Shown piece by piece: positions 4,480 through 19,510 of a DNA stretch of 64,000 bases. Position 1 is the first letter of the stretch, and each line of letters opens with the position of its first letter. The notes beneath the pieces were generated by a model. The model saw nothing but the letters and a program-made list of their open reading frames with translations. It was not told where the DNA came from and ran no database searches. A program made the position numbers and the translations under genes. Origin of the DNA: a virus (Duplodnaviria > Caudoviricetes); the IMG/VR virus record IMGVR_UViG_3300043395_004688; one strand, written 5' to 3'.

Positions 4480-4511
4480 AGAAACATCATTAACGCCCTG
4501 AAGGAGCCACC

Positions 4512-5609: not shown

Positions 5610-5613
5610 TAGG

Positions 5614-5940: not shown

Positions 5941-5966
5941 AGATACATAGTTTGAAGGAGCCACAA

Positions 5967-7163
5967 ATGTCTAGAATGCCCGCCCGCGATAAGCTTATTA
6001 AGAGCCGTGTTGCAATGTTGCTGAAGTATCCGTTCTGGGGGCCTTTGGCAGCTCGGCTCAAGCTTGAAGAAGTTGATTGGTGCAAGACCATTGCCACTGA
6101 CGGCCGCAAGTTTTACTATAACAAAGAGTTTGTCGAGAAGCTCAGCGACGGCGAAATGATTTTTGGTTTTGGCCACGAGCTTGGACACATTATTTTTGAT
6201 CACATGGTCCGCCGAGGAGACCGTGAACCTCAAATTTGGAACATGGCCGGTGACTATGTTATCAATAACATGCTGGTCCGTGAAGGTGTTGGCACACCAA
6301 TCACCACTGTACCTATTCTAGTTGATCGCAAGTATGAAGGCAAGACTGCCGACGAAGTTTATGACGACTTGATGGCCAATGCCACCGTTATTAAGATGAC
6401 GCTGGATGACCACCTTGATGCTGATGGCAGTGGTGACGGTGACAGCGACAGTGACGGCGAAGGCAACGGCAAGCCCAAGTTCAAGAAGCTTACCGAAGAA
6501 GAGCGCAAGGCTCTGCGTGACGAGTGGCGCGAAGCTGTTATCCAAGCCGCAAAGAATGCTGGCGCAGGTAATACGCCGGCCGCAATTCAGCGCCTAGTTA
6601 AGGATATTACTGCGCCTGTTATGGATCTGCGTGATCTGTTGCGTATTCAGTTTAGCGGCTCTGTTAAGAGTGACTACACCTGGATGCGTCCTAACCGCAA
6701 AGGTTGGCATACTGGTGCAGTTCTTCCGGGTCAGTTGCCTGGCGAGGAACTGGACATTGTAGTGGCACTTGATGCTTCAGGTTCCATTGGTGAAGACATG
6801 CTGATGGACTTTTTGGGTATGGTACAGGGTTCGCTGGATCAATTTACCAGCTACAAGGTTCGTGTTGTTACCTTTGACACTACTGTTTACAACGAAGACG
6901 AGTTCACTGCGGAAGATGGTCGTAGCATGGGCGAATACGAAGTTACCGGTGGCGGTGGTACAAGCTTTGAATGTGTGTGGCAGTGGATGAAGGACAATGA
7001 AATCCAACCGCACCAATTGGTCATGTTCACAGACGGATATCCGTTTGGTTCGTGGGGCGATCCTGACTACTGCGACACGCTGTTTGTGGTTCATGGTAGC
7101 AAGGACATCACTGCTCCGTTTGGTATCACTGCTAACTATGTGCCTGCCAATCGCAGGCATTAA
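5967..7163 (+). CDS. HExxH metallopeptidase-like + vWA domain protein (DUF2201-type)
   Basis: IATDG, GHELGHII (HExxH), acidic D/G linker, MIDAS LDASGS, GGGTSF, FTDGY; SD AAGGAG before ATG 5967. Confidence 0.9.
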   Translation: MSRMPARDKLIKSRVAMLLKYPFWGPLAARLKLEEVDWCKTIATDGRKFYYNKEFVEKLSDGEMIFGFGHELGHIIFDHMVRRGDREPQIWNMAGDYVINNMLVREGVGTPITTVPILVDRKYEGKTADEVYDDLMANATVIKMTLDDHLDADGSGDGDSDSDGEGNGKPKFKKLTEEERKALRDEWREAVIQAAKNAGAGNTPAAIQRLVKDITAPVMDLRDLLRIQFSGSVKSDYTWMRPNRKGWHTGAVLPGQLPGEELDIVVALDASGSIGEDMLMDFLGMVQGSLDQFTSYKVRVVTFDTTVYNEDEFTAEDGRSMGEYEVTGGGGTSFECVWQWMKDNEIQPHQLVMFTDGYPFGSWGDPDYCDTLFVVHGSKDITAPFGITANYVPANRRH

Positions 7164-7164
7164 A

Positions 7165-7375
7165 CCAGAAGGACGTTCAGCTTAATCAGCTGATACTGTG
7201 ACCCGCAGGATGAGAAGTGGTGTGATAACCACGGGTGGTTCCAGTCTAACCTAACTGGCGCTGGCGATGCGAGAATCCTCCCTGGTTGGGAAGCGGGTGG
7301 AAGGCATGCGTGATGGTGTTGGGAGTAACCTAGCGCCTGATGTGCTACAATTACCGCCGCAGGGAGGAAGCACTT
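7165..7375 (+). ncRNA. Putative structured non-coding RNA with a C/D-type kink-turn
   Basis: Helices TCAGCT/AGCTGA, ACCC/GGGT, GTGGT/ACCAC, CCAGT/ACTGG; 9-bp TCCTCCCTG(7276-84)/CAGGGAGGA(7360-68) closing a nested arm rich in G-U pairs. Confidence 0.7.
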
Positions 7376-7382
7376 AGTTCGC

Positions 7383-7405
7383 TAAGTAAGGTAGAGTACC
7401 TTACT
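7383..7405 (+). promoter_or_regulatory. Late promoter TAAGTA overlapped by a perfect 9-bp hairpin abutting the radical SAM start codon
   Basis: TAAGTA 7383-88; AGTAAGGTA-GAG-TACCTTACT 7385-7405; ATG 7406. Confidence 0.7.
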
Positions 7406-8263
7406 ATGATAGAACTAGAATACGCTGAGGTAACCTGGTTTTTAAATGGTTACTGCAAATTCCAATGCTCCTACTGCCCATCACTCTTTAAAAGTGGTGA
7501 GTTGAGCTTTTCAGTTGACCAGTATCTATCTGTCATTGAAAAATTGCAAAGCACAAGATACCAACACCACCCAAAAATATATTGGAAGCTAGGCGGCGGT
7601 GAACCTTTACATTATCCGCATCTGAGTACATTGTTAAAAAAAATAAAAGAACGACCATCATTTGTTAGACTTGATACCAGTGGTGACGATACTTGGTTTT
7701 CTTTGTACAGCGTTTTAAATTTCATTGACAAGGTAAAACTTACATACCATCCCTGGCAAAATGATGATGTGTTTGGCTTTGCACTTGAGCAATGCCAAGA
7801 AAAAAATATAGGGGTTTCAATTGTTATTCCTTTAACGCCCGGAAAGATTTACGAAGCCAAAGAAAAAGCACAGCACTATAAAGACCTAGGATATGTGTGC
7901 AGTGAGCAAATACTCTACGAAGAAGACGGTCGATTATATCAAGGATATAGCCAAGTAGATGAGAATAGAATTTATGGTCGCCCAGACGATTATGTTAGTG
8001 TTCCAGTGGTTCCAGTGTATACAGACCTAAGTGTACCTAATCAAGCAGATCCTGTTTACACGGGAAAGCCATGCTATGCAGGAGTAGACTGGTTGACTAT
8101 TAATCCTCGCGGCTTTGCATCATATAGTCAATGCGGTGGCAGAAGCGAACACTACAATGTATTTGATCCACAATGGCAACCACCTAGCAGTCATTTTGCT
8201 TGTACCGTAAACCAATGTAGAAACGAACAAGATCGTAGAAAAATTAGAATTGTTACCGAGTAG
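7406..8263 (+). CDS. Radical SAM protein with C-terminal SPASM/twitch-like Cys cluster
   Basis: CKFQCSYC (CxxxCxxC), GGGEPL; C-terminal KPCYAG...INPRG...SQC...CTVNQC. Confidence 0.9.
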   Translation: MIELEYAEVTWFLNGYCKFQCSYCPSLFKSGELSFSVDQYLSVIEKLQSTRYQHHPKIYWKLGGGEPLHYPHLSTLLKKIKERPSFVRLDTSGDDTWFSLYSVLNFIDKVKLTYHPWQNDDVFGFALEQCQEKNIGVSIVIPLTPGKIYEAKEKAQHYKDLGYVCSEQILYEEDGRLYQGYSQVDENRIYGRPDDYVSVPVVPVYTDLSVPNQADPVYTGKPCYAGVDWLTINPRGFASYSQCGGRSEHYNVFDPQWQPPSSHFACTVNQCRNEQDRRKIRIVTE

Positions 8264-8290
8264 AAACGCACCGCAAGGTGCGTTTTTTTT
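8264..8290 (+). terminator. Rho-independent terminator
   Basis: AAACGCACC-GCAA-GGTGCGTTT followed by a T-run. Confidence 0.9.
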
Positions 8291-8367
8291 GATTCCATTT
8301 TGGTTAAACCTTTGCAAAATTGGCTAATAAGTATTTCGTGGGTATACCATAACAATAGGAGATAAAC

Positions 8368-8607
8368 ATGGAAAACCAAGAACAGGCACAACAGCCAATT
8401 TCGCTCAATTTACAAGACCTTCGCGTACTAGCCGGTGCAGTAGAACTCGGCGCTACACGCGGTGCCTATCGTGCCAATGAAATGGAAATTGTTGGTGCTA
8501 CTTACAACAAGTTAGCATTATTTCTAAAGGCCAATACACCAGCAGAGCAGCCGGCTGAAGCAGGCGCACCTGCAGAAGTTACCGACGCACCTCAAGAAGC
8601 TGCTTAA
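8368..8607 (+). CDS. Small acidic hypothetical protein
   Basis: SD AGGAG; late hexamer TAAGTA at 8328-33; LQDL...RGAYRANEMEIVG..YNKL pattern recognised from T4-like phages. Confidence 0.75.
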   Translation: MENQEQAQQPISLNLQDLRVLAGAVELGATRGAYRANEMEIVGATYNKLALFLKANTPAEQPAEAGAPAEVTDAPQEAA

Positions 8608-8624
8608 ACTAAAAGGAGCCTTAT

Positions 8625-9248
8625 ATGGCAAAATTTATTAAACATGTTGGACAAAATTTACAAGGCAAAAAGGTTGTAGTTTTGTTTCGCGAAGTACCCG
8701 GAGAGCCCGAGAACTGCCTGGTAGTTCATACAGAAAAGCTACCAGCTAGCTATCACGACGATCTTATGCGAGCTGTTGAAAGTAATATTTGCCAGGATCA
8801 ACTTGACACTCATGACTTTCTTTTTAGACAGTCATTCCAGGACGGTACCAATATGCTAAACACCTTGCATCAGCAAGGTTGGATTGTCAAGGTGCCTACC
8901 AAGAGCATTCTTATGCGACCAACTCCCGGCGTTGAAATTAACCTAGTTGATCTCAATAAGGAACTCAAGCAAATTACAAATCAAGAAGCTGTACAGGGAA
9001 TTAAACGAGCACCTGTAGCAGCGGCTGCGCCAAGCACACCACCCGGCGTAATCAGCGACGAGCAATTGGCTGCTAAGTATCGTTCTCAGGCCAATACCTT
9101 TGAAGCTGAAGTACGCAGGTTGAGAGAAGAGGCAAACAAGCTTGACCCAAAAAGCGTGGTCGCGGGCGACCACCAAAGTCCAGCCCAGCCGGCGACCGAA
9201 GCCAAGAGAGGAAGGGGCCGGCCAGCCAAGGTTCAAGTCGTAAGTTAA
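8625..9248 (+). CDS. Hypothetical protein with C-terminal AT-hook
   Basis: SD AAGGAG; ends KRGRGRPAK (AT-hook motif). Confidence 0.75.
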   Translation: MAKFIKHVGQNLQGKKVVVLFREVPGEPENCLVVHTEKLPASYHDDLMRAVESNICQDQLDTHDFLFRQSFQDGTNMLNTLHQQGWIVKVPTKSILMRPTPGVEINLVDLNKELKQITNQEAVQGIKRAPVAAAAPSTPPGVISDEQLAAKYRSQANTFEAEVRRLREEANKLDPKSVVAGDHQSPAQPATEAKRGRGRPAKVQVVS

Positions 9249-9285
9249 CTTGGCTTGATCGTCTTAGGTCTTTTTGGAACTAACA

Positions 9286-9588
9286 ATGAGCATTCGCAAA
9301 AAAGATCGCAGCTTTGAAGACATGCTTCGAGAGATACATGTTGAGGAAGTACCTGTGGAATACATTGAATGGATCAAGGTCTATTTAGATGATGGCACAG
9401 AAATTGTCTTCAAGCAAAAAGATCTATCTGAAATTAAAACTAGCAAAGAAGTACTGGGTATCAAACAGCTAGAACAATACCTAGATCGTATTGTAGATTT
9501 TGAAGTAATGATGAACAGTGAACTTATCAAGTCTAAGGTCACTAGATTTGTAGGTGCTTTGTTAGCCACGCACTTTAATCAGGATTAA
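9286..9588 (+). CDS. Hypothetical protein
   Basis: ORF within the operon; acidic; start set at ATG 9286. Confidence 0.7.
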   Translation: MSIRKKDRSFEDMLREIHVEEVPVEYIEWIKVYLDDGTEIVFKQKDLSEIKTSKEVLGIKQLEQYLDRIVDFEVMMNSELIKSKVTRFVGALLATHFNQD

Positions 9589-9591
9589 ATT

Positions 9592-10296
9592 ATGATTGAT
9601 TTATTATTAGTAAACCCACCAGAACATGCTTACAATTTAATGCCTTCATTTAGGTCTCAGGGGCTAGACTGTAAGGTAGTGATAACCCCAGGCTATGCAG
9701 ATCAGGCCGCTTTTGTGCAGGATGACGGAAATAATATTTCACTGTCATCTGTTGATAGTGTTACCACTGCATTGGCATTTGGGCCAAATGGCCAACGAAT
9801 CGTTGAAGGATTGAATTCTGCCGGTAAGATTGTTTTGGGAAACATTTCTAGTCCTAGTCACTTTCAGCGTCGTTTACAGTACTATCACACTGAAAAAGCA
9901 AATACTGGAACATGGAAATTTGAATTAGTATCTTTTAAAGGTAGGCATGTACTTGCTTATGCTAAATTTTATAATGAAGCATACGGCTGGAAACTAATTG
10001 ATAGAACAAAACAAGACCTTCCGTTTTTCTCCGGAAGAATTGAAGAAGTTTTTGAGTTTGCTGATCACATGGGCATACAAAATGGCCCATCGCAAATCTA
10101 CATAGACAACGAATCAAATTTTCGCTGTAGATTTTGTTTTGGATGGGAAGCATCAGCTGGGTTCCAAAAGCATTTTGAACACATATGGCCTAGTGTATTA
10201 CTTCACACGAAGGAAGAACCAAAAAAAGCAGCAGCGGCCTTTTACAATTGGGCAGACCGCAACGGTTCTTCTAAGAGATTTGATGTTAAGAAATAA
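9592..10296 (+). CDS. Degenerate ATP-grasp-like protein
   Basis: FELVSFKGRHVL and MGIQNGPSQIYI resemble the ATP-grasp_4 C-domain (E-vs-dG-h; lGi-nGp-H-E), but the catalytic E-x-N is not evident. Confidence 0.45.
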   Translation: MIDLLLVNPPEHAYNLMPSFRSQGLDCKVVITPGYADQAAFVQDDGNNISLSSVDSVTTALAFGPNGQRIVEGLNSAGKIVLGNISSPSHFQRRLQYYHTEKANTGTWKFELVSFKGRHVLAYAKFYNEAYGWKLIDRTKQDLPFFSGRIEEVFEFADHMGIQNGPSQIYIDNESNFRCRFCFGWEASAGFQKHFEHIWPSVLLHTKEEPKKAAAAFYNWADRNGSSKRFDVKK

Positions 10297-10299
10297 TTC

Positions 10300-10752
10300 T
10301 TAGTGTCTTTTTAAAGTTCCAAACATCCAGTCCCACACAGGACTAAACAATCCAAAATTAACACGAGTATCCCAGTGGTGAACCAAATGCCATTTACCAC
10401 TGGTAATCCATGGGTACCAATCAAACTTTGGATTATGCTCAATGGTTTCCTGTATAAATGCTGCCCAGAAGTAATAGAATACACTAATCCACCAATGCCC
10501 TGTAATCCAACTGAACACTAGTGTGGGAATAACTTCAGTGATCCACAGATCTAGTGTACTCATCCAAGTGTCATTGAATAAGAATATGTTATTCCAGTGC
10601 CATTTGGTTTGTTCGTGAGTGTTTATATACTTGTGGTGGTCGGCGTGAGCTAAGAATGCCAGCGGAAAGTAGCTGAGGCCTACAGCATGTATGGCACGAT
10701 GTATAATGTACAGATAAAGCGTCCAAGCAAGAAAAACTACAAAATAGATCAT
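10300..10752 (-). CDS. Fatty-acid hydroxylase / sterol desaturase superfamily membrane enzyme
   Basis: His boxes HRAIH, HADHH, HLVHH plus hydrophobic helices; TAAGTA 5 nt before ATG 10752. Confidence 0.85.
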   Translation of the reverse strand: MIYFVVFLAWTLYLYIIHRAIHAVGLSYFPLAFLAHADHHKYINTHEQTKWHWNNIFLFNDTWMSTLDLWITEVIPTLVFSWITGHWWISVFYYFWAAFIQETIEHNPKFDWYPWITSGKWHLVHHWDTRVNFGLFSPVWDWMFGTLKRH

Positions 10753-10802
10753 GCTAGTACTTAGCAAGCAAATTTAATCATATAATGCCTAATAAATAAA
10801 AC

Positions 10803-11315
10803 ATGCTTTTATACGAACGAACCAACATACCAAATTGGAAACTGATTCAAGAAAAGTTTTCTTACTTAGAAACTGCAAGGTCAGGCAGCGAATGGATCTA
10901 CCTTTTAGATAACAATGAAATTGCCGAGCTAACGAAATTGCTCCCTGTATATCCAGAAAGAAAAATAAAATCTGTACTGGCATTTAGTCAAGGACCATTG
11001 GGTGTACAGGAGATACATGTTGACGGCTACAGCGCAAAAAGAACTCGCTCCAGTAATAGCGCATTAAACATACCAATCAAATCCAGTGGTAGAATGACCT
11101 GGTATCGTGGAAAGTATGAATTAGAAGAAGCGTCAACCAGTAAGGTAAAATACCTTAAACTAAATTGGATTAGTGAGCCTGCTATACAAAATAGTGTAAC
11201 AATTGATTCACCTACTATTGTTAAAATTGATGTTCCTCATCGTGTTACCAACTTGGACAATGATTCAAGGATAGTACTGAGTGTAAGATTTTCTCCGGAC
11301 ATAGCCATTGGGTAA
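10803..11315 (+). CDS. 2OG-Fe(II) oxygenase-like protein
   Basis: IHVDG (HxD), ALNIPI, VPHRVTN (distal His), RIVLSVRF (2OG-binding Arg); TAAATA 10793-98. Confidence 0.7.
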   Translation: MLLYERTNIPNWKLIQEKFSYLETARSGSEWIYLLDNNEIAELTKLLPVYPERKIKSVLAFSQGPLGVQEIHVDGYSAKRTRSSNSALNIPIKSSGRMTWYRGKYELEEASTSKVKYLKLNWISEPAIQNSVTIDSPTIVKIDVPHRVTNLDNDSRIVLSVRFSPDIAIG

Positions 11316-11363
11316 ACAAACAGCTCTTGTGTTCATACATAAAAAGGTAACAGGAGAATTACC

Positions 11364-11984
11364 ATGAAGTGGCTAGCACTTGCTTGCTCTGCTGAAAACG
11401 AAGTACTTGCTTGCTCTGAGAGTTTACCATTGGTTGAAAGTGCGTGCCTCAACGATTTTAGAGCCATCTCTAGAATTTACGGACTTTCAGAGTCTGAGGC
11501 AAATGAACTCAAGAATGGTAATTTTAATTTTCGCATAGAGTTTAATGGTCCAAGAAATACCAAGTTGGTACCTCATCAGAAATCAGAAGATCTTGAATTA
11601 TTAAGCAAACAATTGCGCGGGCGAGTGCAGCTAATGCATGAGCTACATCAACGACTAGCACATGGACATAAAAGATTCCTTGATGTTGTACCTTGGCAAC
11701 AAGAAGCATACGAAGAAAAATATGTTGAAGCACAGGCCGTCATTGACGGAGTAACAGCAGAGTCCGGTATGGTATCTGACTATGCAGAAGAAAGCGGCCT
11801 AACAATCAATGTTGCCGCTGGTATTATTGTAAACAAATATCTGAATAGAAAATTTTTGCTTCGCAAACTTGAAAGGCTGCGAATTAGACATCAAATTGCT
11901 ATTCGTAATGCCAGTACCAAAGAAGACTTTGATCGGTGTCGTTCTGCAATGGACGAAGATGCCTTTTTGTCAATGATGATGTAA
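11364..11984 (+). CDS. Hypothetical protein; C-terminus resembles tail-fibre assembly chaperones
   Basis: SD CAGGAG; YEEKYVEAQA...YAEESG..I..K...LERLRIRHQIAIRNAST helical pattern. Confidence 0.6.
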   Translation: MKWLALACSAENEVLACSESLPLVESACLNDFRAISRIYGLSESEANELKNGNFNFRIEFNGPRNTKLVPHQKSEDLELLSKQLRGRVQLMHELHQRLAHGHKRFLDVVPWQQEAYEEKYVEAQAVIDGVTAESGMVSDYAEESGLTINVAAGIIVNKYLNRKFLLRKLERLRIRHQIAIRNASTKEDFDRCRSAMDEDAFLSMMM

Positions 11985-11986
11985 CT

Positions 11987-13051
11987 ATGAAAAAATTACT
12001 CTACTACATTCCACATCGTCTGTATCAGACAAAACCAGACATTGACCCAGCAACAAAATCGTTTGTGCAAATGTTCAATCCTTGGATCAGTTTGCACGAC
12101 CGCACTGGTACATTAAACATTCCAGGTATTGATGTACACAACAATAGTCCAATACCCAATAAGCCCGCTACTGTACCTACATTCAGTGCTGCCAGCTATC
12201 AACGCATTGATGAGTGCATTGAACTTTTTAAAACAAAGAACAAACAAAGACTTGTTGTCTTTTTTAGCGGCGGCATTGATAGTACTCTGATTGTTTCGTT
12301 ACTAATCAGTCATCCCCATTGGGCAGATATTAAAGAATCTGTTTGGTGTGCAGTAAATGAAGATAGTCAAGTTGAAAACAGTGAGTTTTTTAATGAAATT
12401 ATATTGCCCCACTTTGGAACAAGGCTGTTGCCAAGCAATAACTTCTATGGCATTATCAATGATCCGCTAAATCTATGCATAACCGGAGAGTGTGCTGATA
12501 ATTTGTTTGGTAGCTTGACTTTAAAAAGCTATATGGATCGCACAGGAAATTTTGATGCTATCCATGGAAACTGGGAATACGAATCTTTACACTGGTTGCT
12601 AGACAAACAAGAAGACTACCGAGATGAGCGTGAACAAATGCTCTACGACTTAGTTAATGCAGCACCTCTACCCATTGAAACTAATCACGATTTCCTATGG
12701 TGGATTAACTTTACCTGCAAATGGCAAGCAGTTAAGTATCGTCTAAGTATGCATTCTCCTAGCGCCAGAGAAGCAGAGTACATGGCTGGAAATATTGTTA
12801 ACTTTTTTGATACTGTTGCGTATCAAGAATGGGCGTTGTATTCCACAGAACCTAAGGTAGGAGATCGGTGGAATACCTATAAACTACCAGCCAAACAATT
12901 GATCAATGATATCTGGCTGAACGAGCGATACTTTAAGTACAAGACCAAATGGCCTAGCTTGCCCAGCATCACTCGCTACAACAACGCCTGGGGATTTTTG
13001 TGGCAGAACGAAGATGGGTCATTGACTGCCACAAAGTCGTTAAACGACTAA
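11987..13051 (+). CDS. Asparagine-synthetase C-domain-like N-type ATP pyrophosphatase, no glutaminase domain
   Basis: FFSGGIDS PP-loop and ITGECADNLFGS (AsnB GEGADELFGG motif). Confidence 0.75.
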   Translation: MKKLLYYIPHRLYQTKPDIDPATKSFVQMFNPWISLHDRTGTLNIPGIDVHNNSPIPNKPATVPTFSAASYQRIDECIELFKTKNKQRLVVFFSGGIDSTLIVSLLISHPHWADIKESVWCAVNEDSQVENSEFFNEIILPHFGTRLLPSNNFYGIINDPLNLCITGECADNLFGSLTLKSYMDRTGNFDAIHGNWEYESLHWLLDKQEDYRDEREQMLYDLVNAAPLPIETNHDFLWWINFTCKWQAVKYRLSMHSPSAREAEYMAGNIVNFFDTVAYQEWALYSTEPKVGDRWNTYKLPAKQLINDIWLNERYFKYKTKWPSLPSITRYNNAWGFLWQNEDGSLTATKSLND

Positions 13052-13705
13052 ATCTTTTGCCATTGGAAAAATTTCAGCAATAACCTGAGCACAAGCTTTG
13101 GCAATTTCTTGGTGCTCTTTCTGAGTTCCATTGGCACTTCTCAGTTCAATAAAGTGAACCCAGCTTCGTAATGTGCCATTCATATACAAGCGACTTTCAA
13201 TAAGTCCTTCGGGCAGTACTGCTCGTGCTTGCTCCTTGGCTATACCGTTAGCGATAGCCCACTCGTACTCTCTTTTTGCAGCAAAGATGACTCGTTGTTG
13301 AGCACGATACCATTCATTTTGTAGCATTGTATCATTCGTTTCAATGCTGTTTTGTCTATTTTTTGTGTCTTGCAGTCTTGCTTCTCTACAAACAAACGAG
13401 AGATCCTGAGTAGGATCAGCATATCGTTGGCTGAACTCTTGGAAGCTAAAGCTTCTGTGTCGAAGGATTTGTCTTGCAATATCTCTTGTAGTAGTGATTT
13501 CCATGCAGGCTGAGACCATTTCGAGTGGTGACCAGTGCTGGTGCTTGATGAGGTATCTGATGAGCTTTTCGGATGTGTCTGTGTTGAATTGGTTGCTAGG
13601 GTTGCTGACACGGGCGCAATACGCAATGAGTTCCTGTGCATCTGTGATGCCTTTGTTGGCAAATTGCTCTGTGGGCTTGGAGTAGCTGAGTAGTTGAACA
13701 TTCAT
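13040..13705 (-). CDS. thyX: Flavin-dependent thymidylate synthase
   Basis: ARVSN, HWSPLE, RHRSFSFQEFSQRY (RHR-x7-S-x-R), ARAVLP, NGTLRSW. Confidence 0.97.
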   Translation of the reverse strand: MNVQLLSYSKPTEQFANKGITDAQELIAYCARVSNPSNQFNTDTSEKLIRYLIKHQHWSPLEMVSACMEITTTRDIARQILRHRSFSFQEFSQRYADPTQDLSFVCREARLQDTKNRQNSIETNDTMLQNEWYRAQQRVIFAAKREYEWAIANGIAKEQARAVLPEGLIESRLYMNGTLRSWVHFIELRSANGTQKEHQEIAKACAQVIAEIFPMAKDLVV

Positions 13706-14598
13706 TTAGTTTCTCTTTCTTGTTGCTTTTCTAATATAGCATTTTTTCTTAGATTCCACAAGCGTTTTGATTCCTCTACAGGCGCAAATGGCAACATTAA
13801 AATCATGCACGGATCAAACTCATGAGGACGACCGCTTACACTGGTGCCAAAATCAAAACTGCTGGCCTTTTGATGATGATTGTTGTGCCAACCGCTACCC
13901 CAGTGAAAATATCCTAGCCACCATACATTGGTGCTGACATCTCTGTTATCAAAGTTCTTGTAGCCTGCTCGGCTGACATGACCAAAGGTATTGACTAAAC
14001 CATCGGCATGCAAACTCATTAACGCACCAATAACAAAGAACCAAACAGTAAATGTTAGCCCAAACAAAAGATAGCTGATTGCCAATGTGCCGTAGATTAC
14101 CTTGTTGTAATTTTCATGAATAAAGGTAATGCGCCTATCTCTCAGCAAGTCAACTGCATAGCGGAAGCTTACACTACCCTGATCAATGCCAAATTGCCAA
14201 CCCATGTAACTGTGCAGCCAACCATTTTCTACAGGAGTGTGGATGTCTTTTCCGGGTTGATCACTTACACGATGATGATGACCACGATGCAAAGCAGCCC
14301 ACCAAAGAGGGCTTCCTTCGCCAACCATGGTTGCAGCCCAAAGCAAAAAAGGTTCAGCAGCTTTTCTTGGCGTCCACGACTTGTGACTTAACCAGCGATG
14401 CAATGTTAGATTATTGCCAACACCGTCAAGCAAGATCCAGCCACACACGGCCCAAACAGGATACCACCAACTCCAATCTTGCAATGCATAGATCACTGCA
14501 AGAATTGCTGCCACATGATAGGGCAACCAAATAGCAATAATATAAGGCACTTGTTTGGTTTTTAGATACAGCTCTTTTTGTTTAATCAACCAGTTCAT
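13702..14598 (-). CDS. Delta-9 acyl-lipid/acyl-CoA desaturase (DesC/OLE1-like)
   Basis: His boxes HRWLSH, HRGHHH, GWHNNHH; LVNTFGH; transmembrane segments. Confidence 0.9.
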   Translation of the reverse strand: MNWLIKQKELYLKTKQVPYIIAIWLPYHVAAILAVIYALQDWSWWYPVWAVCGWILLDGVGNNLTLHRWLSHKSWTPRKAAEPFLLWAATMVGEGSPLWWAALHRGHHHRVSDQPGKDIHTPVENGWLHSYMGWQFGIDQGSVSFRYAVDLLRDRRITFIHENYNKVIYGTLAISYLLFGLTFTVWFFVIGALMSLHADGLVNTFGHVSRAGYKNFDNRDVSTNVWWLGYFHWGSGWHNNHHQKASSFDFGTSVSGRPHEFDPCMILMLPFAPVEESKRLWNLRKNAILEKQQERETK

Positions 14599-15235
14599 TT
14601 TTTTCCTGCGTACTGTTAGAGTTTGTATTTAATACCTTAGGGTCTGTGTTTTGTCGTCGAAGAATATACCTTCTTAAACTCATATCATGAGGATGCAAAG
14701 TTTGGCCCATTAAAGAATATATAAACCCATACGGACTTCTTTCTTTGGCAGGTACTGTGCATTCAACAAAAGTGTAATATTTTTCACGAAACGGCAACAT
14801 AATTTTACTGTATGCTGATTCTCTCGAACTTGGATAAGTTACAAAAAATTCATTGAAGCCAATAGATTCGTGTAAACAGGCCAACTGTGACATGAGTTCT
14901 CTAAAACATGCTATAAATTTAAAATTGTTACGCGGACTCAAAACCCAAGCCACGGACCAACTTGGCCAATTTTCAAACCTGGTTACTCCTGCGGCTATAA
15001 TATACTTTCCATTGTCATCAACTAATGCAAATGCCTGCCTGATGTTGTGATTAGCAAAAGAACTTGGCAATGTGAAAGCTTTGTAGAATTTTTTTCTTTT
15101 GCCAGCATCATCAATATCTGTTGAAAATCTAAATTCTGGGTATTTGTCTGCGTCTGTATTTTGATATACCAGTTCGGCAAATTCCAGCAGAGACGACAAG
15201 TTGTCTGAGTCAATTTCAATCAAGCGATATGACAT
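14582..15235 (-). CDS. Hypothetical protein, possible GNAT fold
   Basis: Strand pattern AFALVDDNGKYIIAAGV / SWSVAWVLS / GFNEFFVTY is typical of acyltransferase folds. Confidence 0.45.
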   Translation of the reverse strand: MSYRLIEIDSDNLSSLLEFAELVYQNTDADKYPEFRFSTDIDDAGKRKKFYKAFTLPSSFANHNIRQAFALVDDNGKYIIAAGVTRFENWPSWSVAWVLSPRNNFKFIACFRELMSQLACLHESIGFNEFFVTYPSSRESAYSKIMLPFREKYYTFVECTVPAKERSPYGFIYSLMGQTLHPHDMSLRRYILRRQNTDPKVLNTNSNSTQEKNELVD

Positions 15236-16167
15236 AGTGTCTTTTTTCCATTTAATAAGTTATATCTAAGCTCAAGCGCATCAACTTGGTAAAGCCTGGG
15301 ATTAAATTTACAAGTTGCAACCGAAGCATTGTACTCAACCTGATCCCAAAGGTGCTTGTAGTTTTCTATGCCAAACCATTTGGGCCTCTGACGGAAACTG
15401 TATCCTAGATGGCTGTAAATTTTCATCTTGCTTGATGTCCAACCAAGCTTGCCAGGAATTCTGTCGTTGATTAGATCATCAACTGTTGGTATTTGTAAAA
15501 AAGCCAGCATTGATTCAGGGCTATAAGAATAAAAATTATTCAACGCCGGGATGCCAGTGCGATCGTTGAATCTACGCCAGCAGCCATCTTGATCTTCTTT
15601 TTTTACAAAAACCCATTGGTTAGAAGTATTACCTGTTTTCCAATCCACTGAATAAGATTTTTCAAGTTCTATTTCATCAATGGTAATCATTGGCATTGCA
15701 AATGCTTCAGCAACATCTAATAGCATTTGTTGATAAAGAGTGTATGCTTGATACCTACGACCTACTTCATAGCAGCGACCAGAATAAACAAAATCTTCTA
15801 GATCAAAATTAATAACAGTATATGAGATGTTCATCTCATTTAACATTTTCATCATTGGTCCAATGTCGTGAAGATTTCCTTCGCCATAGAACTTTACTGT
15901 TGCTATTCTTGGAGTTATGCCTGCTGCTAAAAAGCTTCTCAGCGCCATTTCGCAGTCAAGTCCTCCGCTCATAAAAAGTGTTAGGTCAGGGTATTCTTTG
16001 TGTAAGGCGCGAGCAGTTCTAATAAGCTCTGCTCGCAAGCTCATTGGCTTTCGTGTACAAATGCCAATCTCCATAGTGGTAGTGTCAAGGTCGTTGGCTC
16101 TCCAAACCTGCTGCGGATCTTGATTATAATAGTATAACAGGTGATTGTTTTCAGTGTTATTAATCAT
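15220..16167 (-). CDS. Second N-type ATP pyrophosphatase-like (AsnB/QueC superfamily) protein
   Basis: LFMSGGLDCE PP-loop variant near the N-terminus. Confidence 0.65.
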   Translation of the reverse strand: MINNTENNHLLYYYNQDPQQVWRANDLDTTTMEIGICTRKPMSLRAELIRTARALHKEYPDLTLFMSGGLDCEMALRSFLAAGITPRIATVKFYGEGNLHDIGPMMKMLNEMNISYTVINFDLEDFVYSGRCYEVGRRYQAYTLYQQMLLDVAEAFAMPMITIDEIELEKSYSVDWKTGNTSNQWVFVKKEDQDGCWRRFNDRTGIPALNNFYSYSPESMLAFLQIPTVDDLINDRIPGKLGWTSSKMKIYSHLGYSFRQRPKWFGIENYKHLWDQVEYNASVATCKFNPRLYQVDALELRYNLLNGKKTLCHIA

Positions 16168-16808
16168 GCGCTTACATAAGGACTTGTACGAGCAACTCCG
16201 TACTTTTTGTCAATTTCCAGCACCAGTTCATCAAGGTCAACAATGTAGTTGTTTGACACAGGTTTAATTACTGCCCACTGTGGTGTGTTGAATAAGCGTA
16301 CCATTCGAGGTAATACCACACAGTTATTCCACCAATTGCTCCATACTCGCCCTAATGGTCTGCCTTGACCTGAGCTGATTCTAGCAATAGTACTGTATAT
16401 CCACTTGTTGTAGTTGTTAAAAGAAAGTATCATGCCCTTTTTACATTTTTCCTGGCACCAGTTTAAATTGGCTGCTAACAAGTAATTGCTGACTTCGTTG
16501 TTGAGTCGATAGTCCTTGAGCAGCCAACAACGATTGCCTCCTGAGCCCAATTCAACATGAAGTGTGCTGTGCTCAACGCAACTGACTCCGACAATCTGAT
16601 CACGGTCATATAAAAACGCAATATGACCCTGACCTCGGAACCATCGAAGCCGTTGTTGTGCAATATACATTAGCCCTGCCGGAGCATCATAGCCCATGTT
16701 ACCAAGAGCAGGTGCGTCAGAGGTAGCGATACGATCCAAAAAAACTTGGTAGTCTTTTAAGAAAGGATCAATGTTATCAGAATAAGCTAATTCAACACGC
16801 AGGCTCAT
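16164..16808 (-). CDS. GNAT-family acyltransferase-like protein
   Basis: IAFLYDRDQIVGVSCVE, RCWLLKDYR (motif A-like), MILSFNNYNKWI (motif B-like); SD ACAGGA before ATG 16808. Confidence 0.6.
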   Translation of the reverse strand: MSLRVELAYSDNIDPFLKDYQVFLDRIATSDAPALGNMGYDAPAGLMYIAQQRLRWFRGQGHIAFLYDRDQIVGVSCVEHSTLHVELGSGGNRCWLLKDYRLNNEVSNYLLAANLNWCQEKCKKGMILSFNNYNKWIYSTIARISSGQGRPLGRVWSNWWNNCVVLPRMVRLFNTPQWAVIKPVSNNYIVDLDELVLEIDKKYGVARTSPYVSA

Positions 16809-16822
16809 CCTGTATGTATCAG

Positions 16823-17335
16823 CTAATCTTCGTTGGTGTTTACCAGGCACATGACCAGGTGTATACGATCAATTAAGCTGCCATTCATGGCTGAATGTTC
16901 TTTGGTAGTATCAACCCACCACACGCTGCCATCAGCTGGCAGATGTCTTAGAATTGGTGGATCTGTAAAAATAAATCTTGCTTGACGATGGGTAACAATG
17001 GGAATGTGTACTCTAGGAGTCATGTCTGTGTGAATACTATAACAAGTCCTGGGATACATGGTCATTAGTCTGGCTCTGTATACTTTAAAAGGAAAGCTGG
17101 TTAAAAAGCCTTCCCACCAAGTTCCAACCAGATTAGGATGTAGTTTATCCCACTGGGCTTCGTCTTGCCCTTCGCGTTTTCCAGTTCCAGATTGCCAATC
17201 GTTATCGCCATTGGTTTGCAAAGACAATTGATGCTGATACCGCCCTGTGGTGCTGTCCCAAAGTATACGGTGTGTTTCTTCTTTTAGCTTTTCAATGTCA
17301 ACTTTGAAATCATAGAGTCTAAATCGTCTGTCCAT
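16823..17335 (-). CDS. Aspartyl/asparaginyl beta-hydroxylase family 2OG-Fe(II) oxygenase
   Basis: RARLM, YSIHTD (HxD), RVHIPI, DTTKEHSAMN, RIHLV. Confidence 0.85.
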   Translation of the reverse strand: MDRRFRLYDFKVDIEKLKEETHRILWDSTTGRYQHQLSLQTNGDNDWQSGTGKREGQDEAQWDKLHPNLVGTWWEGFLTSFPFKVYRARLMTMYPRTCYSIHTDMTPRVHIPIVTHRQARFIFTDPPILRHLPADGSVWWVDTTKEHSAMNGSLIDRIHLVMCLVNTNED

Positions 17336-18546
17336 TATACTTTACCTATAGCCATAAAGCGCAGACATTTATTCAATATCAGTTCTCCGCTCCATAGTAT
17401 AGTATTTAATCCAGACGATTCTAAAAACTCCTCAAGGCTGTTATGACAATTTACATGATCTGGTACATCAAACATGTTGTTGCCTTGTAGTACAACCAGT
17501 GTGCCTTTAGGCAAGCTTTTAATCCACTTTCCGTGGTCTTTGAAATGCTCGACGATAGTATCAATCACTATTAGATTTTTGTGTTGTGTAAAATTGTATT
17601 TTTTAATGTCCTTGGCCAAGCTACGATATTTGAATTTGCTTGCGTTGCCAACTAATTTTTCAGCGGCTGGATGTACTGTTTTGTCTAGATCGATGTTGAT
17701 CAGTTCTGGAGTATGTACTAGCTTGTAGAATTCAAAATCAGTTAGAGTCATTAACCAAGGTAAAATTCCAACCCAACCACCAACAACAATAATAGTCTGC
17801 GGCTCTAGTATATTTTTTATTTGAGCCTTAGAGGTTGCACCAGACTCTTGCATTTTTTCCAGTAACCAAAGTTTACTTTGCACTTGATTTCTACTCAGTG
17901 CGTCTTTCCAGTTTAACTCTGGGTTTTCTTCGATTATTTCTGCAAGTAGGCTTATTTGTTTGGCTCGATCTGGATAGTATTTAGAAACTTCTCTAGTAAA
18001 GCAAGACATTGAGTTATCTTCTAAGCACGACAACAAGGTGTCACCTAGAAAAATTTTTATTACTTCAAAAAGTTTAGTAATGTCTTCCTTTGACTCTTTG
18101 ATTTTGCCAAGTACAAAAGGTATTGCTGACAAAGGGTTGTCAAACTCTTTGCTGTTTTCATGCACCCAATCGTGTAGTTCCCAAAAGCGACCTTCTTGTA
18201 TTTCAAGATTATCGGTGTAAGACAAGTTTGTTTGTTGTATTAGCCATGCTGGTACAGGACTCAGCATGATTTCTTTTCCTTCTGACCACTCTCGTGGCAA
18301 ACGAAGATGTTTCAAAAACAAACTATGTACAGTCTGATCAATATGATCGTTCTTGCCTTGACAGTAGTTAACCAATGGCCATAGATTAAGATAATGCTCT
18401 TTTCCTATTTCAACAATTAGCTTAACTAGGTCTTCTTGATCCTGTGTTTCGTACCAACGATGTAAAAAATGCAAGCTTCGACGAAATCCAACGATTTCAT
18501 CTAAGAAGATCAGCATGGAGTTTTTTAATTCAACAGACTTATCCAT
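17335..18546 (-). CDS. Class I SAM-dependent methyltransferase-like protein with N-terminal extension
   Basis: QVQSKLWL, IVVGGWVG (motif I), NIDLD (motif II), DTIVEHF, VLQGNN. Confidence 0.7.
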   Translation of the reverse strand: MDKSVELKNSMLIFLDEIVGFRRSLHFLHRWYETQDQEDLVKLIVEIGKEHYLNLWPLVNYCQGKNDHIDQTVHSLFLKHLRLPREWSEGKEIMLSPVPAWLIQQTNLSYTDNLEIQEGRFWELHDWVHENSKEFDNPLSAIPFVLGKIKESKEDITKLFEVIKIFLGDTLLSCLEDNSMSCFTREVSKYYPDRAKQISLLAEIIEENPELNWKDALSRNQVQSKLWLLEKMQESGATSKAQIKNILEPQTIIVVGGWVGILPWLMTLTDFEFYKLVHTPELINIDLDKTVHPAAEKLVGNASKFKYRSLAKDIKKYNFTQHKNLIVIDTIVEHFKDHGKWIKSLPKGTLVVLQGNNMFDVPDHVNCHNSLEEFLESSGLNTILWSGELILNKCLRFMAIGKV

Positions 18547-19510
18547 TGAACCAACCATACAGTTTTAGGTTTGTCTGTGCTGCTACATCCTCATTTGTTA
18601 ATTCTTTATTGGGATGAAACTGTAGTCTCTTAATAACTTCGCTGTGGCTAGCATCAAATTCAGGTAGCGCGAAGCCTAAGCCAGCACTGATTGCTTTGCT
18701 CAATTGCTTGCTTGATTTCATAGGATTGTCTTTGCTGTGGCTTTCAAAGAAATCTTTAAACCATTCGTAGTCGCGAATATGCATTGGATCAAAATCATCG
18801 TACTGTAAAAGTTTAACTGCTAAACGAGCACCGTAGATTGTCCACCAGCCGTTCTTAACATCTGCGCCCACAGTCATCCAGGTTAGTAAACGCTGGAAAT
18901 TTGCACCGTGAATTTTATTGGTCCACTGTTCAAATGGCACTGCCTGTCCTTGATCCATGCTTAGTTTGATGCCTTCACGAAAGCCAACTCTAAAGGCCTG
19001 ATAAGGACTGCCATTGGTATATGTGGTTGACCAGCAACCAGACAGCGTTTTGTATTGAGATCCGTCCCAGCAAAAGTCCACAGCATCTCTTTCTGAATCT
19101 GCTGCTTCATGACTACGCATGGTTTCCAAATGAATTCTGCTCCACAGCTTGATTCCACCATTGCCATACATCAACCCATTGGTATGTTGTCTTCCGTTCC
19201 ACGAGTAGCTGATTGGCAATTTAATATCTGCTTGCAATTGCAAATTAAAAAAGTTCAAGTCAACAAGATTATCTGCATCCACTGTTATCACATGGGTGCT
19301 ATTGGGAAAGGCCGCAGCAGCAGCTTTATGTGCGGCATCAAATCCTTTGACTCCGTGTACTCTTCGAACAAGATTACCAGGCCTATTTCTTTGCAGATGC
19401 TCCCAATGTTGATCAGCATTGGGTTCGTCATAGCTTAAAAACGCCACAGGAAATTTACCAAGAGAATGTACTTCCTTGTTAACTAACTTAGCATGATTAA
19501 ACAGTGACAT
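18539..19510 (-). CDS. Glycosyltransferase-like protein, paralogue 3
   Basis: FLSYDEPNAD, VDADN (DxD), NGLMYGNGGIKLW, AFRVGFREGIKL. Confidence 0.7.
   Translation of the reverse strand: MSLFNHAKLVNKEVHSLGKFPVAFLSYDEPNADQHWEHLQRNRPGNLVRRVHGVKGFDAAHKAAAAAFPNSTHVITVDADNLVDLNFFNLQLQADIKLPISYSWNGRQHTNGLMYGNGGIKLWSRIHLETMRSHEAADSERDAVDFCWDGSQYKTLSGCWSTTYTNGSPYQAFRVGFREGIKLSMDQGQAVPFEQWTNKIHGANFQRLLTWMTVGADVKNGWWTIYGARLAVKLLQYDDFDPMHIRDYEWFKDFFESHSKDNPMKSSKQLSKAISAGLGFALPEFDASHSEVIKRLQFHPNKELTNEDVAAQTNLKLYGWFNG

Follow-up and report, generated by a model that had tools for sequence, protein, structure and literature searches.

A putative tailoring cassette in a huge freshwater phage

Between positions 9592 and 17335 of the 64-kb stretch of DNA analyzed here (the window), a huge freshwater phage tightly packs genes for some 10 modifying enzymes (Table 1). 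Two of them are ATP-driven and form amides, two are acyl-transfer-type proteins, one is a membrane fatty-acid desaturase, and several are hydroxylases. Do these genes constitute a pathway and, if so, what does it make? An earlier note had proposed that acyl-, amide-, and oxygenase-type tailoring enzymes act here as a set, and this core claim is supported: the genes stay together among relatives rather than being shuffled independently, and catalytic residues are present. The interval contains a copy of a tailoring cassette that is both mobile and conserved, and whose core consists of o206 and PP1, PP2, and the GNAT-fold proteins o217 and o228. Additions by the jumbo-phage lineage are an SCD-type delta-9 desaturase and a small fatty-acid-hydroxylase-type protein (both integral-membrane di-iron enzymes), an AspH-like enzyme, the C-terminal domain of o407 (o407C), and probably a further soluble Fe/2OG hydroxylase, o170.

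Table 1. Genes of the cassette and its immediate surroundings
Feature	Coordinates	Strand	Basis
o234, peripheral to cassette	9592-10296	+	No family match
Fatty-acid hydroxylase superfamily, small di-iron membrane protein, 155 aa	10300-10767	-	PF04116, 48.5 bits (cut-off 31)
o170, candidate small Fe(II)/2OG-type oxygenase	10803-11315	+	Motif only
o206, helical protein of undescribed family, 206 aa	11364-11984	+	Alignments; no Pfam or PDB match
PP1, stand-alone AsnB-type PP-loop synthetase domain	11987-13051	+	SGGIDS PP-loop; AF2 pLDDT 94.9
ThyX	13040-13705	-	150 bits
SCD-type (delta-9-like) membrane fatty-acid desaturase	13702-14598	-	PF00487, 53.1 bits (cut-off 29.7)
o217, divergent GNAT-fold protein	14582-15235	-	Atlas structure search
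PP2, second PP-loop ATP pyrophosphatase, phage-restricted family	15220-16167	-	Invariant SGGLD(C/S)E
o228, divergent GNAT-fold protein (likely start, ATG at 16808)	16164-16850	-	AF2 pLDDT 92.1; Foldseek versus PDB
AspH-family Fe(II)/2OG dioxygenase, 170 aa, catalytic core only	16823-17335	-	PF05118 (Asp_Arg_Hydrox), 33.8 bits (cut-off 22.6)
o407, C-terminal ~200 aa a conserved domain without assigned fold	17335-18558	-	Alignment, 33 invariant columns

Amide-forming enzymes and an undescribed gene pair

Both genes previously read as ATP pyrophosphatases, the first of them AsnB-like, prove to be so. The best structural matches of PP1 are AsnB-family synthetase domains (Z of 10.5 to 12.7, versus 9.2 or less for other PP-loop families), with TsnB9, ASNS, AsnB, beta-lactam synthetase, and carbapenam synthetase occupying the top ranks (Foldseek, VIA-align), and "asparagine synthetase domain" clusters in AFDB are matched at TM scores of up to 0.85. 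PP1 has in common with the AsnB family (AsnB/ASNS, beta-lactam and carbapenam synthetases, TsnB9, and lasso-peptide cyclases) the PP-loop, the fold of the C-terminal synthetase domain, and the expected chemistry of carboxylate adenylation followed by attack of a nitrogen nucleophile, but it differs in its low sequence identity to solved members (10 to 13%), in its pairing with a helical protein from a previously undescribed family, and in lacking the Ntn glutaminase domain and Cys1. Since only a vestige of the glutaminase domain aligns, PP1 does not use glutamine; it is presumably an ATP-dependent, carboxylate-adenylating amide synthetase. The profile of PP2 hits NH3-dependent NAD synthetase (5e-4) and aligns with PP1 over the PP-loop region (hhalign probability, 88%); PP2 is present at 52 viral loci, and a pattern scan of cultured phages and of 185,579 species genomes detected no member.

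PP1 also matches a PHROG labeled "QueC-like" (1.7e-4), as would suit a cassette that hypermodifies phage DNA or tRNA through PP-loop adenylation (cf. TilS, QueC) and GNAT acylation (cf. TmcA, Mom), with hydroxylases and radical SAM enzymes as finishing steps. ThyX within the interval, which the earlier note had overlooked, ThyA and DHFR beside the cassette of one relative (L068), and radical SAM genes nearby are compatible with such a role. However, PP1 belongs structurally to the AsnB branch rather than with MesJ/TilS (Z of 8.0), no QueC chain is among its structural matches listed, the set is coupled with genes for a membrane desaturase and a membrane hydroxylase, and ThyX occupies a variable slot and does not belong to the cassette in distant relatives. 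We therefore consider nucleic-acid hypermodification very improbable.

The conserved o206, likewise missing from the earlier inventory, is almost always encoded immediately upstream of the AsnB-like enzyme, and the two form a previously undescribed gene pair. The o206 family comprises 1483 cluster representatives and extends to a neighbor protein in locus L007 (hhalign probability, 97%). Beyond phages, the pair is widespread in Patescibacteria and Bdellovibrionales. Genes found beside its bacterial relatives encode methyltransferases, cupins, an AMP-binding enzyme, or an ACP (PP-binding, 22.8 bits); this is the logic of small-molecule assembly. We presume that o206 is an adaptor or partner subunit of PP1, and a weakly supported prediction of their complex places the contact at helix residues 146 to 168 of o206 and not at its tail.

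That same contact bears on a ribosomal-peptide-like route, in which o206 (or a short ORF that takes its place in relatives L067 and L068) would be the substrate or leader-bearing precursor, and adenylation of its C-terminal part by PP1, together with GNAT acylation and hydroxylation, would yield a lipopeptide. The position of o206 directly ahead of PP1, the near invariance of its last ~10 residues within phages, the SPASM radical SAM and TauD genes of L067, and the acylation of RiPPs by GNAT maturases (PMC8784127) speak for this route, which we nevertheless judge improbable: the wider family conserves an internal helical region and not the C-terminal tail (leader/core precursors usually show the opposite), the predicted contact avoids the tail, and no protease or exporter was seen. 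In selidamides, which are RiPP lipopeptides, GNAT maturases fatty-acylate ribosomal peptides, and hydroxylases and radical SAM enzymes are often present (PMC8784127). The small GNAT-fold enzyme, fatty acyl chain, hydroxylases, and radical SAM enzymes are points of likeness, whereas the phage cassette has no recognizable leader/core precursor, protease, or transporter, and its membrane desaturase and two PP-loop enzymes are without counterpart there.

Acyl-transfer-type and membrane enzymes

Structure bears out both genes that had been taken for GNATs. In the Atlas, o217 resembles RimI-type GNATs (TM of 0.57 to 0.63 by query and 0.65 to 0.77 by hit), and we presume it to be an acyl transferase. 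A Foldseek search of the PDB links o228 to PaiA and other GNATs (4.6e-7), and its structural matches in Swiss-Prot include OlsB and many acyl-HSL synthases, enzymes that use acyl-ACP as donor; the o228 family is limited to this phage clade (121 matches; no Pfam family). The alignments of o217 and o228 contain no canonical CoA-binding R/Q-x-x-G-x-G/A motif, and no feature of either protein tells whether its donor is long-chain acyl, acetyl, or aminoacyl.

The calls of a fatty-acid hydroxylase and a delta-9 desaturase are likewise confirmed. Conserved His motifs mark the hydroxylase; every close relative has it, and L059 and L067 again carry it alongside the cassette. The desaturase matches the NCBIfam DesA family (1e-12), and its SCD-type His boxes (HRxxSH, HRGxHH, and HNNHH) are conserved in all homologs. 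In the cassette, it always comes directly after o217, which overlaps both adjoining genes, and the order of PP2, o217, and desaturase is retained in all three tiers of relatives. This constant adjacency of o217 and a membrane desaturase ties the GNAT chemistry to an acyl chain. The earlier note had described overlaps between neighboring minus-strand cassette genes, and by their coordinates these amount to 1 to 17 nt. Translational coupling joins two integral-membrane enzymes of lipid type to the soluble ones.

Oxygenases and peripheral genes

The gene called an Asp/Asn beta-hydroxylase is indeed of the AspH family: its H-x-D...H triad (H102, D104, and H147) is invariant in 12 homologs, and it is retained beside the cassette in distant relatives. 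The proposed 2OG-Fe oxygenase, o170, stands on its invariant residues (H72-x-D74...H146...N150...R156), feature-level leads in the Atlas to 2OG-FeII_Oxy_3 and Asp_Arg_Hydrox, and paralogs in related cassettes (L067, L068, and L094); Pfam, PDB, and hhalign gave no support. Invariant columns of o407C include GGW, D-x-D, EHF, LQ-x-N-x-M, and H...C, and its stand-alone homologs (194 aa) adjoin AspH in L055, L058, L059, and L061; o407 has no match in Pfam or PDB. The reading of o234 as a degenerate ATP-grasp found no support, since searches of Pfam, PHROG, NCBIfam, and PDB gave no match. No other gene in the region evolves as fast (median identity, 30%), and o234 is missing in two close relatives and in every distant one.

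Co-inheritance across distant phages

Among ~50 loci of close relatives (a count that includes some double views of one contig), the tailoring genes are never missing where both flanks are present. In five more distant loci (L055, L058, L059, L061, and L062; 38 to 45% identity), o228, PP2, o217, the desaturase, o206, and PP1 are gathered in a single operon, all pointing the same way and flanked by AspH and o407C, in a genomic setting that differs from that of the window and has none of its other neighbors. Two still more distant loci (L067 and L068) retain PP2, o217, the desaturase, a short ORF, and PP1; their additions are AspH, o170 paralogs, radical SAM/SPASM, TauD, and either a fatty-acid hydroxylase or as many as four extra desaturase paralogs.

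These comparisons bear on whether there is a pathway at all. Independent auxiliary genes (a membrane-fluidity desaturase, stress hydroxylases, and orphan ATPases), each acting on host metabolism, could have remained together through common descent only, and close relatives are in any case syntenic over the entire region. Desaturase and AspH-like genes also occur singly, in Pelagibacter phage Mosig and as stand-alone auxiliary genes of pelagimyophages (PMC7029224). The FA_desaturase and AspH-family genes of cyanophages and pelagiphages resemble those studied here in being auxiliary genes of aquatic phages but are single there, whereas here they are translationally coupled within a multi-enzyme cassette inherited as a unit. 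That set stays intact even where relatives at 34 to 45% identity have it inverted, re-ordered, and relocated, leaving behind ThyX, GT, VWA, and o289-o355; its genes overlap, and it also occurs on a Bdellovibrio MAG contig (L087). A mere gathering of unrelated genes thus has little probability: a set that moves as a unit among distant phages, and is partly shared with predatory or parasitic bacteria, argues for a real pathway.

The core also occurs without any membrane enzyme, namely in L010, in Patescibacteria, and in a second copy elsewhere in the same phage, so its chemistry need not involve lipid; the desaturase, for its part, could work on host phospholipids independently of the other enzymes.

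Genomic setting and expression

Two features of the setting that the earlier note had invoked find no support. Late promoters had been assigned to the hydroxylase and oxygenase, but TATAAATA, tested as such a promoter, is found at two places in the window, as chance predicts, neither of them near the cluster, and sigma-70-like sites in the window do not exceed shuffles. The radical SAM gene thought to belong to the set is a weak match (23 bits, under the cut-off of 29.5). A strong terminator (8262-8287) and three genes stand between it and the cluster, and 14 of 25 close relatives lack it. In one freshwater metatranscriptome, exact contigs cover only 8347-9870, with almost none over the cassette, which is weak evidence and no measure of absence.

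The minus-strand cassette genes do carry on a long operon that encodes baseplate and tail proteins (baseplate hub, 39562-41709; virion protein, 41713-43791; cement-like protein, 25659-26726), the cassette of a 452-kb relative (L058) lies between the tail sheath and tail tube genes, and that of L068 adjoins an Mtd-like fiber gene. Such repeated siting keeps alive a reading in which the enzymes decorate virion (tail) proteins post-translationally, through GNAT acylation, AspH-like hydroxylation, and PP-loop amidation or cross-linking of carboxylate side chains, the target structural proteins coming from the same late transcripts as the enzymes. Protein Asp/Asn residues are the classic hydroxylation target of AspH enzymes, and AsnB-like enzymes make the isopeptide bonds of lasso peptides. 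Against this stand the two coupled membrane lipid-type di-iron enzymes, the frequency of o206 and PP1 in Patescibacteria and Bdellovibrionales without virion genes and sometimes with an ACP or AMP-binding enzyme, and the location of the phage's second cassette copy outside the tail genes; overall, we hold virion decoration to be unlikely, if deserving of some weight.

Resemblance to known systems and the probable product

Several described systems share parts of this inventory. In the asnO-ngg system, a capped, amidated dipeptide, N-acetylglutaminylglutamine amide (NAGGN), is the product of a GNAT acetyltransferase, an ATP-grasp ligase, and an AsnB-like enzyme that performs the amidation; the combination of a GNAT with an AsnB-like enzyme recurs here, but AsnO retains its glutaminase domain, NAGGN involves no lipid-type enzymes, and an ATP-grasp role of o234 is unsupported. 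At the level of superfamilies, the earlier note was justified in drawing a parallel to aminolipid modifiers, in that OlsC, OlsD, and LpxO are AspH-type Fe/2OG enzymes and OlsE is of the di-iron hydroxylase superfamily. To our knowledge, no described aminolipid pathway includes PP-loop enzymes or a delta-9 desaturase. Ornithine-lipid and other aminolipid systems resemble the cassette in their AspH/LpxO-type hydroxylases, di-iron head-group hydroxylase, and GNAT-related N-acyltransferase acting on an N-acyl amino-acid lipid; they differ in that the phage has no detectable sequence homolog of OlsB, OlsA, or OlsF and that its AspH-like protein is a soluble core without membrane anchors. The phage record (177.7 kb, 53% complete) contains no PlsC-type O-acyltransferase, another difference from aminolipid systems, and no ACP, acyl-CoA or AMP ligase, or substrate-defining enzyme. 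ATP-dependent amide formation on a head-group carboxylate is a further likeness: transfer of taurine to the carboxyl group of ornithine lipid (cerilipin) is known biochemically, its gene still missing (PMC12971839).

The coupled membrane lipid-type enzymes, together with the bacterial core beside an ACP or AMP-binding enzyme, lead us to lean toward a small amphiphile, and our preferred reading, to which we assign a probability of roughly 45%, is that the cassette serves to make or remodel an amphiphilic acyl-amide, one of aminolipid or lipopeptide type. We infer the order of steps, acyl donor, amine, and biological role as follows. A GNAT-fold enzyme would place a fatty acyl chain on an amine; PP1 and PP2 would each activate a carboxylate by adenylation and couple it to an amine that is not ammonia derived from glutamine, extending or capping the head group via amide bonds; and the desaturase and hydroxylases would act afterward, in the membrane, on both acyl chain and head group. 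Either the host envelope would be the site of synthesis or the product would alter that envelope, at the time when the structural genes of the phage are being expressed.

Inheritance of the tailoring cassette

Two scans of IMG/VR yielded 61 related loci in total, 53 of them at 56 to 97% identity. In a tblastn matrix of the close relatives, among which some contigs are each represented by two loci, no tailoring gene is missing wherever both flanks are present. Five more distant loci (L055, L058, L059, L061, and L062, at 38 to 45% identity) carry a co-directional operon ordered o228–PP2–o217–desaturase–o206–PP1, which is adjoined by the AspH-like gene and a stand-alone form of o407C (the C-terminal domain of o407), as well as, in L059, by a fatty acid (FA) hydroxylase; the ThyX gene, the glycosyltransferase-like gene, the VWA/AAA genes, and o289 to o355 are absent from this operon region. 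Two further loci, L067 and L068 (34 to 37% identity in PP1), retain PP2, o217, the desaturase, a short ORF, and PP1, supplemented by an FA hydroxylase or four more desaturase paralogs, AspH, several o170 paralogs, radical SAM/SPASM, and TauD. Adjacent cassette genes overlap by 1 to 17 nt. Given these overlaps and co-inheritance through both rearrangement and relocation, the cassette is very likely a functional unit: the earlier note's observation of a co-functioning tailoring set was largely right, and its interpretation reasonable. The same co-inheritance makes it unlikely that these are independent auxiliary genes with no joint pathway. Literature searches for the gene combination found no report of it.

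The cassette of L058 contains a Rieske/ring-hydroxylating oxygenase alpha subunit (PF00848, 1e-27). In L068 (a 43-kb viral contig), five FA_desaturase-family paralogs lie around a single PP1 homolog, more membrane di-iron enzymes than is usual for a phage, and this cluster adjoins ThyA, DHFR, and an Hc1-like gene.

Features of the tailoring cassette, its surroundings, and related loci
Feature	Sequence	Coordinates	Strand	Remarks
Terminator-like hairpin	Window	8262-8287	+	
o234	Window	9592-10296	+	
FA hydroxylase	Window	10300-10767	-	FA_hydroxylase PF04116, 48.5 bits (cut-off 31)
o170	Window	10803-11315	+	
o206	Window	11364-11984	+	
PP1	Window	11987-13051	+	True start is the ATG following the o206 stop; SGGIDS PP-loop; 354 aa
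ThyX	Window	13040-13705	-	
Desaturase	Window	13702-14598	-	FA_desaturase PF00487, 53.1 bits (cut-off 29.7); 57.6 bits in genome scan
o217	Window	14582-15235	-	
PP2	Window	15220-16167	-	SGGLD(C/S)E invariant
o228	Window	16164-16850	-	
AspH-like	Window	16823-17335	-	Asp_Arg_Hydrox PF05118, 33.8 bits (cut-off 22.6)
323-aa ORF	Window	20370-21341	-	
292-aa ORF	Window	23034-23912	-	
Second cassette	G000:C1 (L094)	2475-14455		
PP2-like	G000:C1	2475-3431	-	
GNAT	G000:C1	4315-4773		Canonical
o206-family protein	G000:C1	4770-5441		
PP1-like	G000:C1	5420-6538		
AspH-like	G000:C1	7020-7910		
Two o170-like genes and a methyltransferase-like gene	G000:C1			In second cassette
Radical SAM	G000:C1	13457-14455		
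Rieske oxygenase alpha subunit	L058	14850-15875		
Five desaturase paralogs	L068	6818-13063		

Genomic setting and flanking genes

The window corresponds to positions 74106 to 138105, minus strand, of a 177.7-kb IMG/VR record (G000:C1; estimated completeness, 53%) whose major head protein is ~65% identical to those of jumbo myoviruses of the Rak2/GAP32/CBB group. Near-identical DNA is present in many independent freshwater metagenomes, and a megablast search of the interval 9592 to 17335 against 50,697 phage records returned no match. This interval forms the junction between a plus-strand gene block (3 to 13051) and the 3′ terminus of an extended minus-strand block, whose first genes, near 43.8 kb, are those of the baseplate and tail; in L058 (a 452-kb contig), the tail sheath gene lies on one side of the inserted cassette and the tail tube gene on the other. 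Two genomes of very different arrangement thus both place the cassette among tail genes, which makes decoration of virion proteins by its enzymes possible, although the membrane enzymes in the set and its occurrences in bacteria speak against such a role.

The late promoters claimed in the earlier note are not borne out by motif counts, which do not exceed expectation: the T4-type late promoter TATAAATA has 2 matches in the window versus 2.8 expected, with none close to the cluster, and sigma-70-like sites number 28 versus 31.7 in shuffled sequences. Nor is a link between the cluster and the upstream radical SAM gene supported: its match is weak, a terminator intervenes, and the gene is often missing in relatives. 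This element is a strong hairpin of the intrinsic-terminator type (an 11-bp stem and then a T run) directly 3′ of the radical SAM gene, and it ends the AAA/VWA/radical-SAM unit ahead of the next plus-strand genes. Exact-match contigs from the metatranscriptome of one freshwater sample (X20) cover positions 8347 to 9870 only, neither showing nor excluding expression of the cassette. The covered stretch comprises the genes o79, o207, and o104 plus the start of o234; o104 is 77 to 93% identical across relatives and belongs to no known family.

Conservation in the region is highest for the 323-aa and 292-aa ORFs, whose identities across relatives (85 to 99% and 76 to 97%, respectively) compare with 40 to 60% for their neighbors. 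Both are without a Pfam match, and the former also without a PHROG match; each probably has a key part in structure or assembly.

A complete ThyX gene (Pfam 150 bits, with the RHR...S motif), which the earlier note did not list, separates the desaturase from PP1. It is not in the cassette of distant relatives, the ThyX of L050 to L053 is only 29% identical, and assemblies of other samples break at this site with many loose ends. ThyX looks like a passenger in a variable insertion slot.

Enzymes of the cassette

(i) PP-loop enzymes. The SGGIDS motif of PP1 is invariant, and its AlphaFold model (pLDDT 94.9) aligns at VIA-align Z scores of 10.5 to 12.7 with the synthetase domains of TsnB9, human ASNS, E. 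coli AsnB, beta-lactam synthetase, and carbapenam synthetase (CarA), versus ≤9.2 for other PP-loop families (NAD synthetase, GMP synthetase, LarE, and MesJ/TilS). PP1 is thus predicted to have the fold of an AsnB-type synthetase domain, in keeping with its earlier designation as an AsnB-like ATP pyrophosphatase. An Ntn glutaminase domain with a catalytic Cys1 was not found in PP1, which aligns to TsnB9 residues ~138 to 530 only; PP1 is therefore not an asparagine synthetase B proper. It cannot use glutamine. PP2, proposed as a second ATP pyrophosphatase, earns that description through its invariant motif and a profile match to NAD synthetase (5e-4), and its similarity to PP1 extends over the PP-loop region only. 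By their sequences, in which the PP-loops are intact, both would be ATP pyrophosphatases of the carboxylate-adenylating kind. In tblastn searches of phage records, PP1 had a single match (25% identity, annotated MnmA) and PP2 none, indicating that no cultured relative carries the cassette; a pattern search for PP2 across 185,579 species genomes likewise returned no relative. Modification of nucleic acid by the cassette is unlikely, since PP1 is structurally nearest the AsnB branch, membrane enzymes are present, and ThyX looks like a passenger.

(ii) GNAT-fold proteins. Both proteins that the earlier note called GNAT or GNAT-like are predicted to adopt this fold. The o228 model (AF2 pLDDT 92.1) matches PaiA (Foldseek, 4.6e-7) among 229 PDB matches at ≤1e-3, and its Swiss-Prot structural neighbors include many acyl-homoserine-lactone synthases as well as OlsB (rank 15); for o217, the fold emerges from an ESM Atlas structure search (TM 0.57 to 0.63 by query and 0.65 to 0.77 by hit). 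The two are not recent paralogs, as hhalign detects no relationship between them, and no Pfam GNAT model matches either. Canonical GNATs bind the acyl-CoA pyrophosphate through an R/Q-x-x-G-x-G/A motif after strand 4. This motif is absent from the alignments of o217 and o228, the latter displaying YRxxNEV instead, and their donor may be something other than a canonically bound acyl-CoA.

(iii) Membrane di-iron enzymes. The designations delta-9 desaturase and fatty acid hydroxylase both held, with Pfam scores above cut-off and intact His motifs. The His boxes HRWLSH, HRGHHH, and HNNHH of the desaturase, together with LH(A/T)D and GH, are kept in 14 aligned homologs and paralogs; with these three boxes and the extra di-iron His ligands, its sequence has the hallmarks of an SCD-type (delta-9) enzyme. 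The HRxxH, HxDHH, and HLxHH motifs of the FA hydroxylase are conserved in 7 homologs, and its sequence likewise assigns it to its superfamily. Both enzymes come from di-iron families that act on lipids, and their metal sites are intact.

(iv) Fe/2OG hydroxylases. The set contains one such enzyme and probably a second. The AspH-like protein, rightly named an Asp/Asn beta-hydroxylase on the strength of its PF05118 score, is a 170-aa catalytic core without a TPR domain or membrane anchor, and its 2-His-1-carboxylate triad (H102, D104, and H147) is invariant in 12 of 12 sequences. Within the PF05118 family, AspH acts on Asp/Asn of proteins and LpxO/OlsC on the acyl chain of a lipid, and either could be the substrate here. 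The second candidate, o170, retains part of its earlier reading as a 2OG-Fe oxygenase: H72, D74, H146, N150, and R156 are invariant (an H-x-D...H...N...R pattern), but fold-level support is lacking, and hhalign aligns it to the AspH set over the second His motif only (E 0.048). The degenerate ATP-grasp claimed for o234 finds no match, to that or any other family, in Pfam, PHROG, NCBIfam, or PDB profiles. Single-sequence and profile searches of PDB with o170, o206, o217, o228, o234, and o407C returned nothing usable.

An adaptor-synthetase pair in phages and bacteria

The helical protein o206 belongs to a family with 1,483 cluster representatives (E ≤1e-3) and with no Pfam or PDB relative. Its members recur beside PP1 homologs: the ORF directly 5′ of the PP1 homolog is of this family in L007 (hhalign 97%) and in the second cassette of the same phage (86.5%), and an o206-family ORF adjoins the PP1 homolog in 13 of 21 genome loci, from Patescibacteria, related MAGs, and Bdellovibrionales (the exceptional L079 has its partner downstream). 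The complex predicted for PP1 and o206 scores 0.33 (best of three controls, 0.00), where, of 80 solved complexes and 110 mismatched pairs, 58 and 2, respectively, reach the mark applied and where scores ≤0.60 include only 7 of the 80 solved complexes plus both passing mismatches. Runs 2 and 3 of this prediction share 61% of contacts, and run 1 shares none. o206 is probably a partner of PP1, a pairing that this modeling supports weakly. We rejected the invariant C-terminal tail of o206 as the site of adenylation by PP1: across the family, an internal helical region is conserved and the tail is variable, its conservation not extending outside phages, and the predicted interface lies elsewhere.

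Genome loci with the o206–PP1 pair also carry a PP2-like PP-loop protein, cupins, methyltransferases, an ACP (PP-binding, 22.8 bits), or an AMP-binding enzyme. The minimal form, in L010, consists of a GNAT, a PP2-like protein, a 203-aa ORF, and a PP1-like protein, and L087 (a Bdellovibrio MAG contig) combines a desaturase, AspH, and two PP1-like genes. Three Bdellovibrionales MAGs (L063, L065, and L074) share a conserved operon over ~7.5 to 13.7 kb of each locus, ordered chorismate-mutase-like, double methyltransferase, o206-like, two tandem PP1-like genes, a 190-aa ORF, and ACP, with a cupin opposite; this looks like a small-molecule pathway based on an adaptor-synthetase pair of the o206–PP1 type.

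The second, paralogous cassette in the phage itself, ~60 kb beyond the window's end, is without a desaturase or FA hydroxylase.

Proposed pathway and known systems

The cassette is a real, conserved, and mobile tailoring unit, in which members of known superfamilies are assembled about a previously undescribed pair of adaptor and synthetase. In the pathway that we propose, a GNAT-fold enzyme would attach a fatty acyl chain to the nitrogen of an amine, amide bonds would form at carboxylates through PP1 (with o206 as its probable partner) and PP2, and the desaturase and hydroxylases would afterwards modify, in the membrane, both the acyl chain and the head group. The GNAT chemistry is tied to an acyl chain mainly because o217 and the desaturase are constantly adjacent. 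Jumbo phages, Bdellovibrionales, and Patescibacteria have in common that they exploit other bacteria. We give about one chance in five to a broader reading, in which the o206-type adaptor and glutaminase-less AsnB-type synthetase, PP2, divergent GNATs, and cupin hydroxylases constitute an undescribed amide-forming system of these three groups, to which phages have added membrane desaturases and hydroxylases for an envelope aminolipid or lipopeptide made or rewritten in late infection. Among the members of such a system could be the long-sought class of enzymes that use ATP to form amides on aminolipid head groups (cerilipin-type).

Among described chemistries, the modification of aminolipids comes closest, and in it the gene for ATP-dependent taurine amidation of ornithine lipid is not yet assigned (PMC12971839); GNAT-mediated fatty acylation of ribosomal peptides (PMC8784127) is also close. 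Ornithine-lipid biosynthesis (OlsB/OlsA or OlsF) requires OlsB-type and PlsC-type enzymes, whereas here OlsB appears only as a structural neighbor of o228, and the 53%-complete record contains no PF01553 (PlsC-type O-acyltransferase), OlsB or OlsA homolog, ACP, or acyl ligase. In clusters for selidamide-type RiPP lipopeptides, the GNAT maturase is accompanied by a short precursor whose leader is conserved and whose core varies; no such precursor was identified here, the sole candidate being o206, with its conserved interior and variable tail. Membership in aminolipid or RiPP pathways is therefore unsupported.

As a rule, each auxiliary gene of a phage supplies a lone enzyme with which host metabolism is patched. 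A multistep, self-contained acyl/amide/oxygenase pathway would differ in that the viruses would make a product of their own, and the cassette is kept across phages that are <45% identical, duplicated within one genome, and shared with predatory and parasitic bacteria. The analysis also defines three protein families without a Pfam or PDB relative, namely, the o206 adaptor (~1,500 cluster representatives), the PP2 ATPase, and the o228 GNAT, and the o206–PP1 pair may account for an orphan gene pair common in Patescibacteria. Were the product a lipid or lipopeptide, viruses would have a new means of altering the envelope of bacteria, which might serve superinfection exclusion, the timing of lysis, or the assembly of virions at the membrane.
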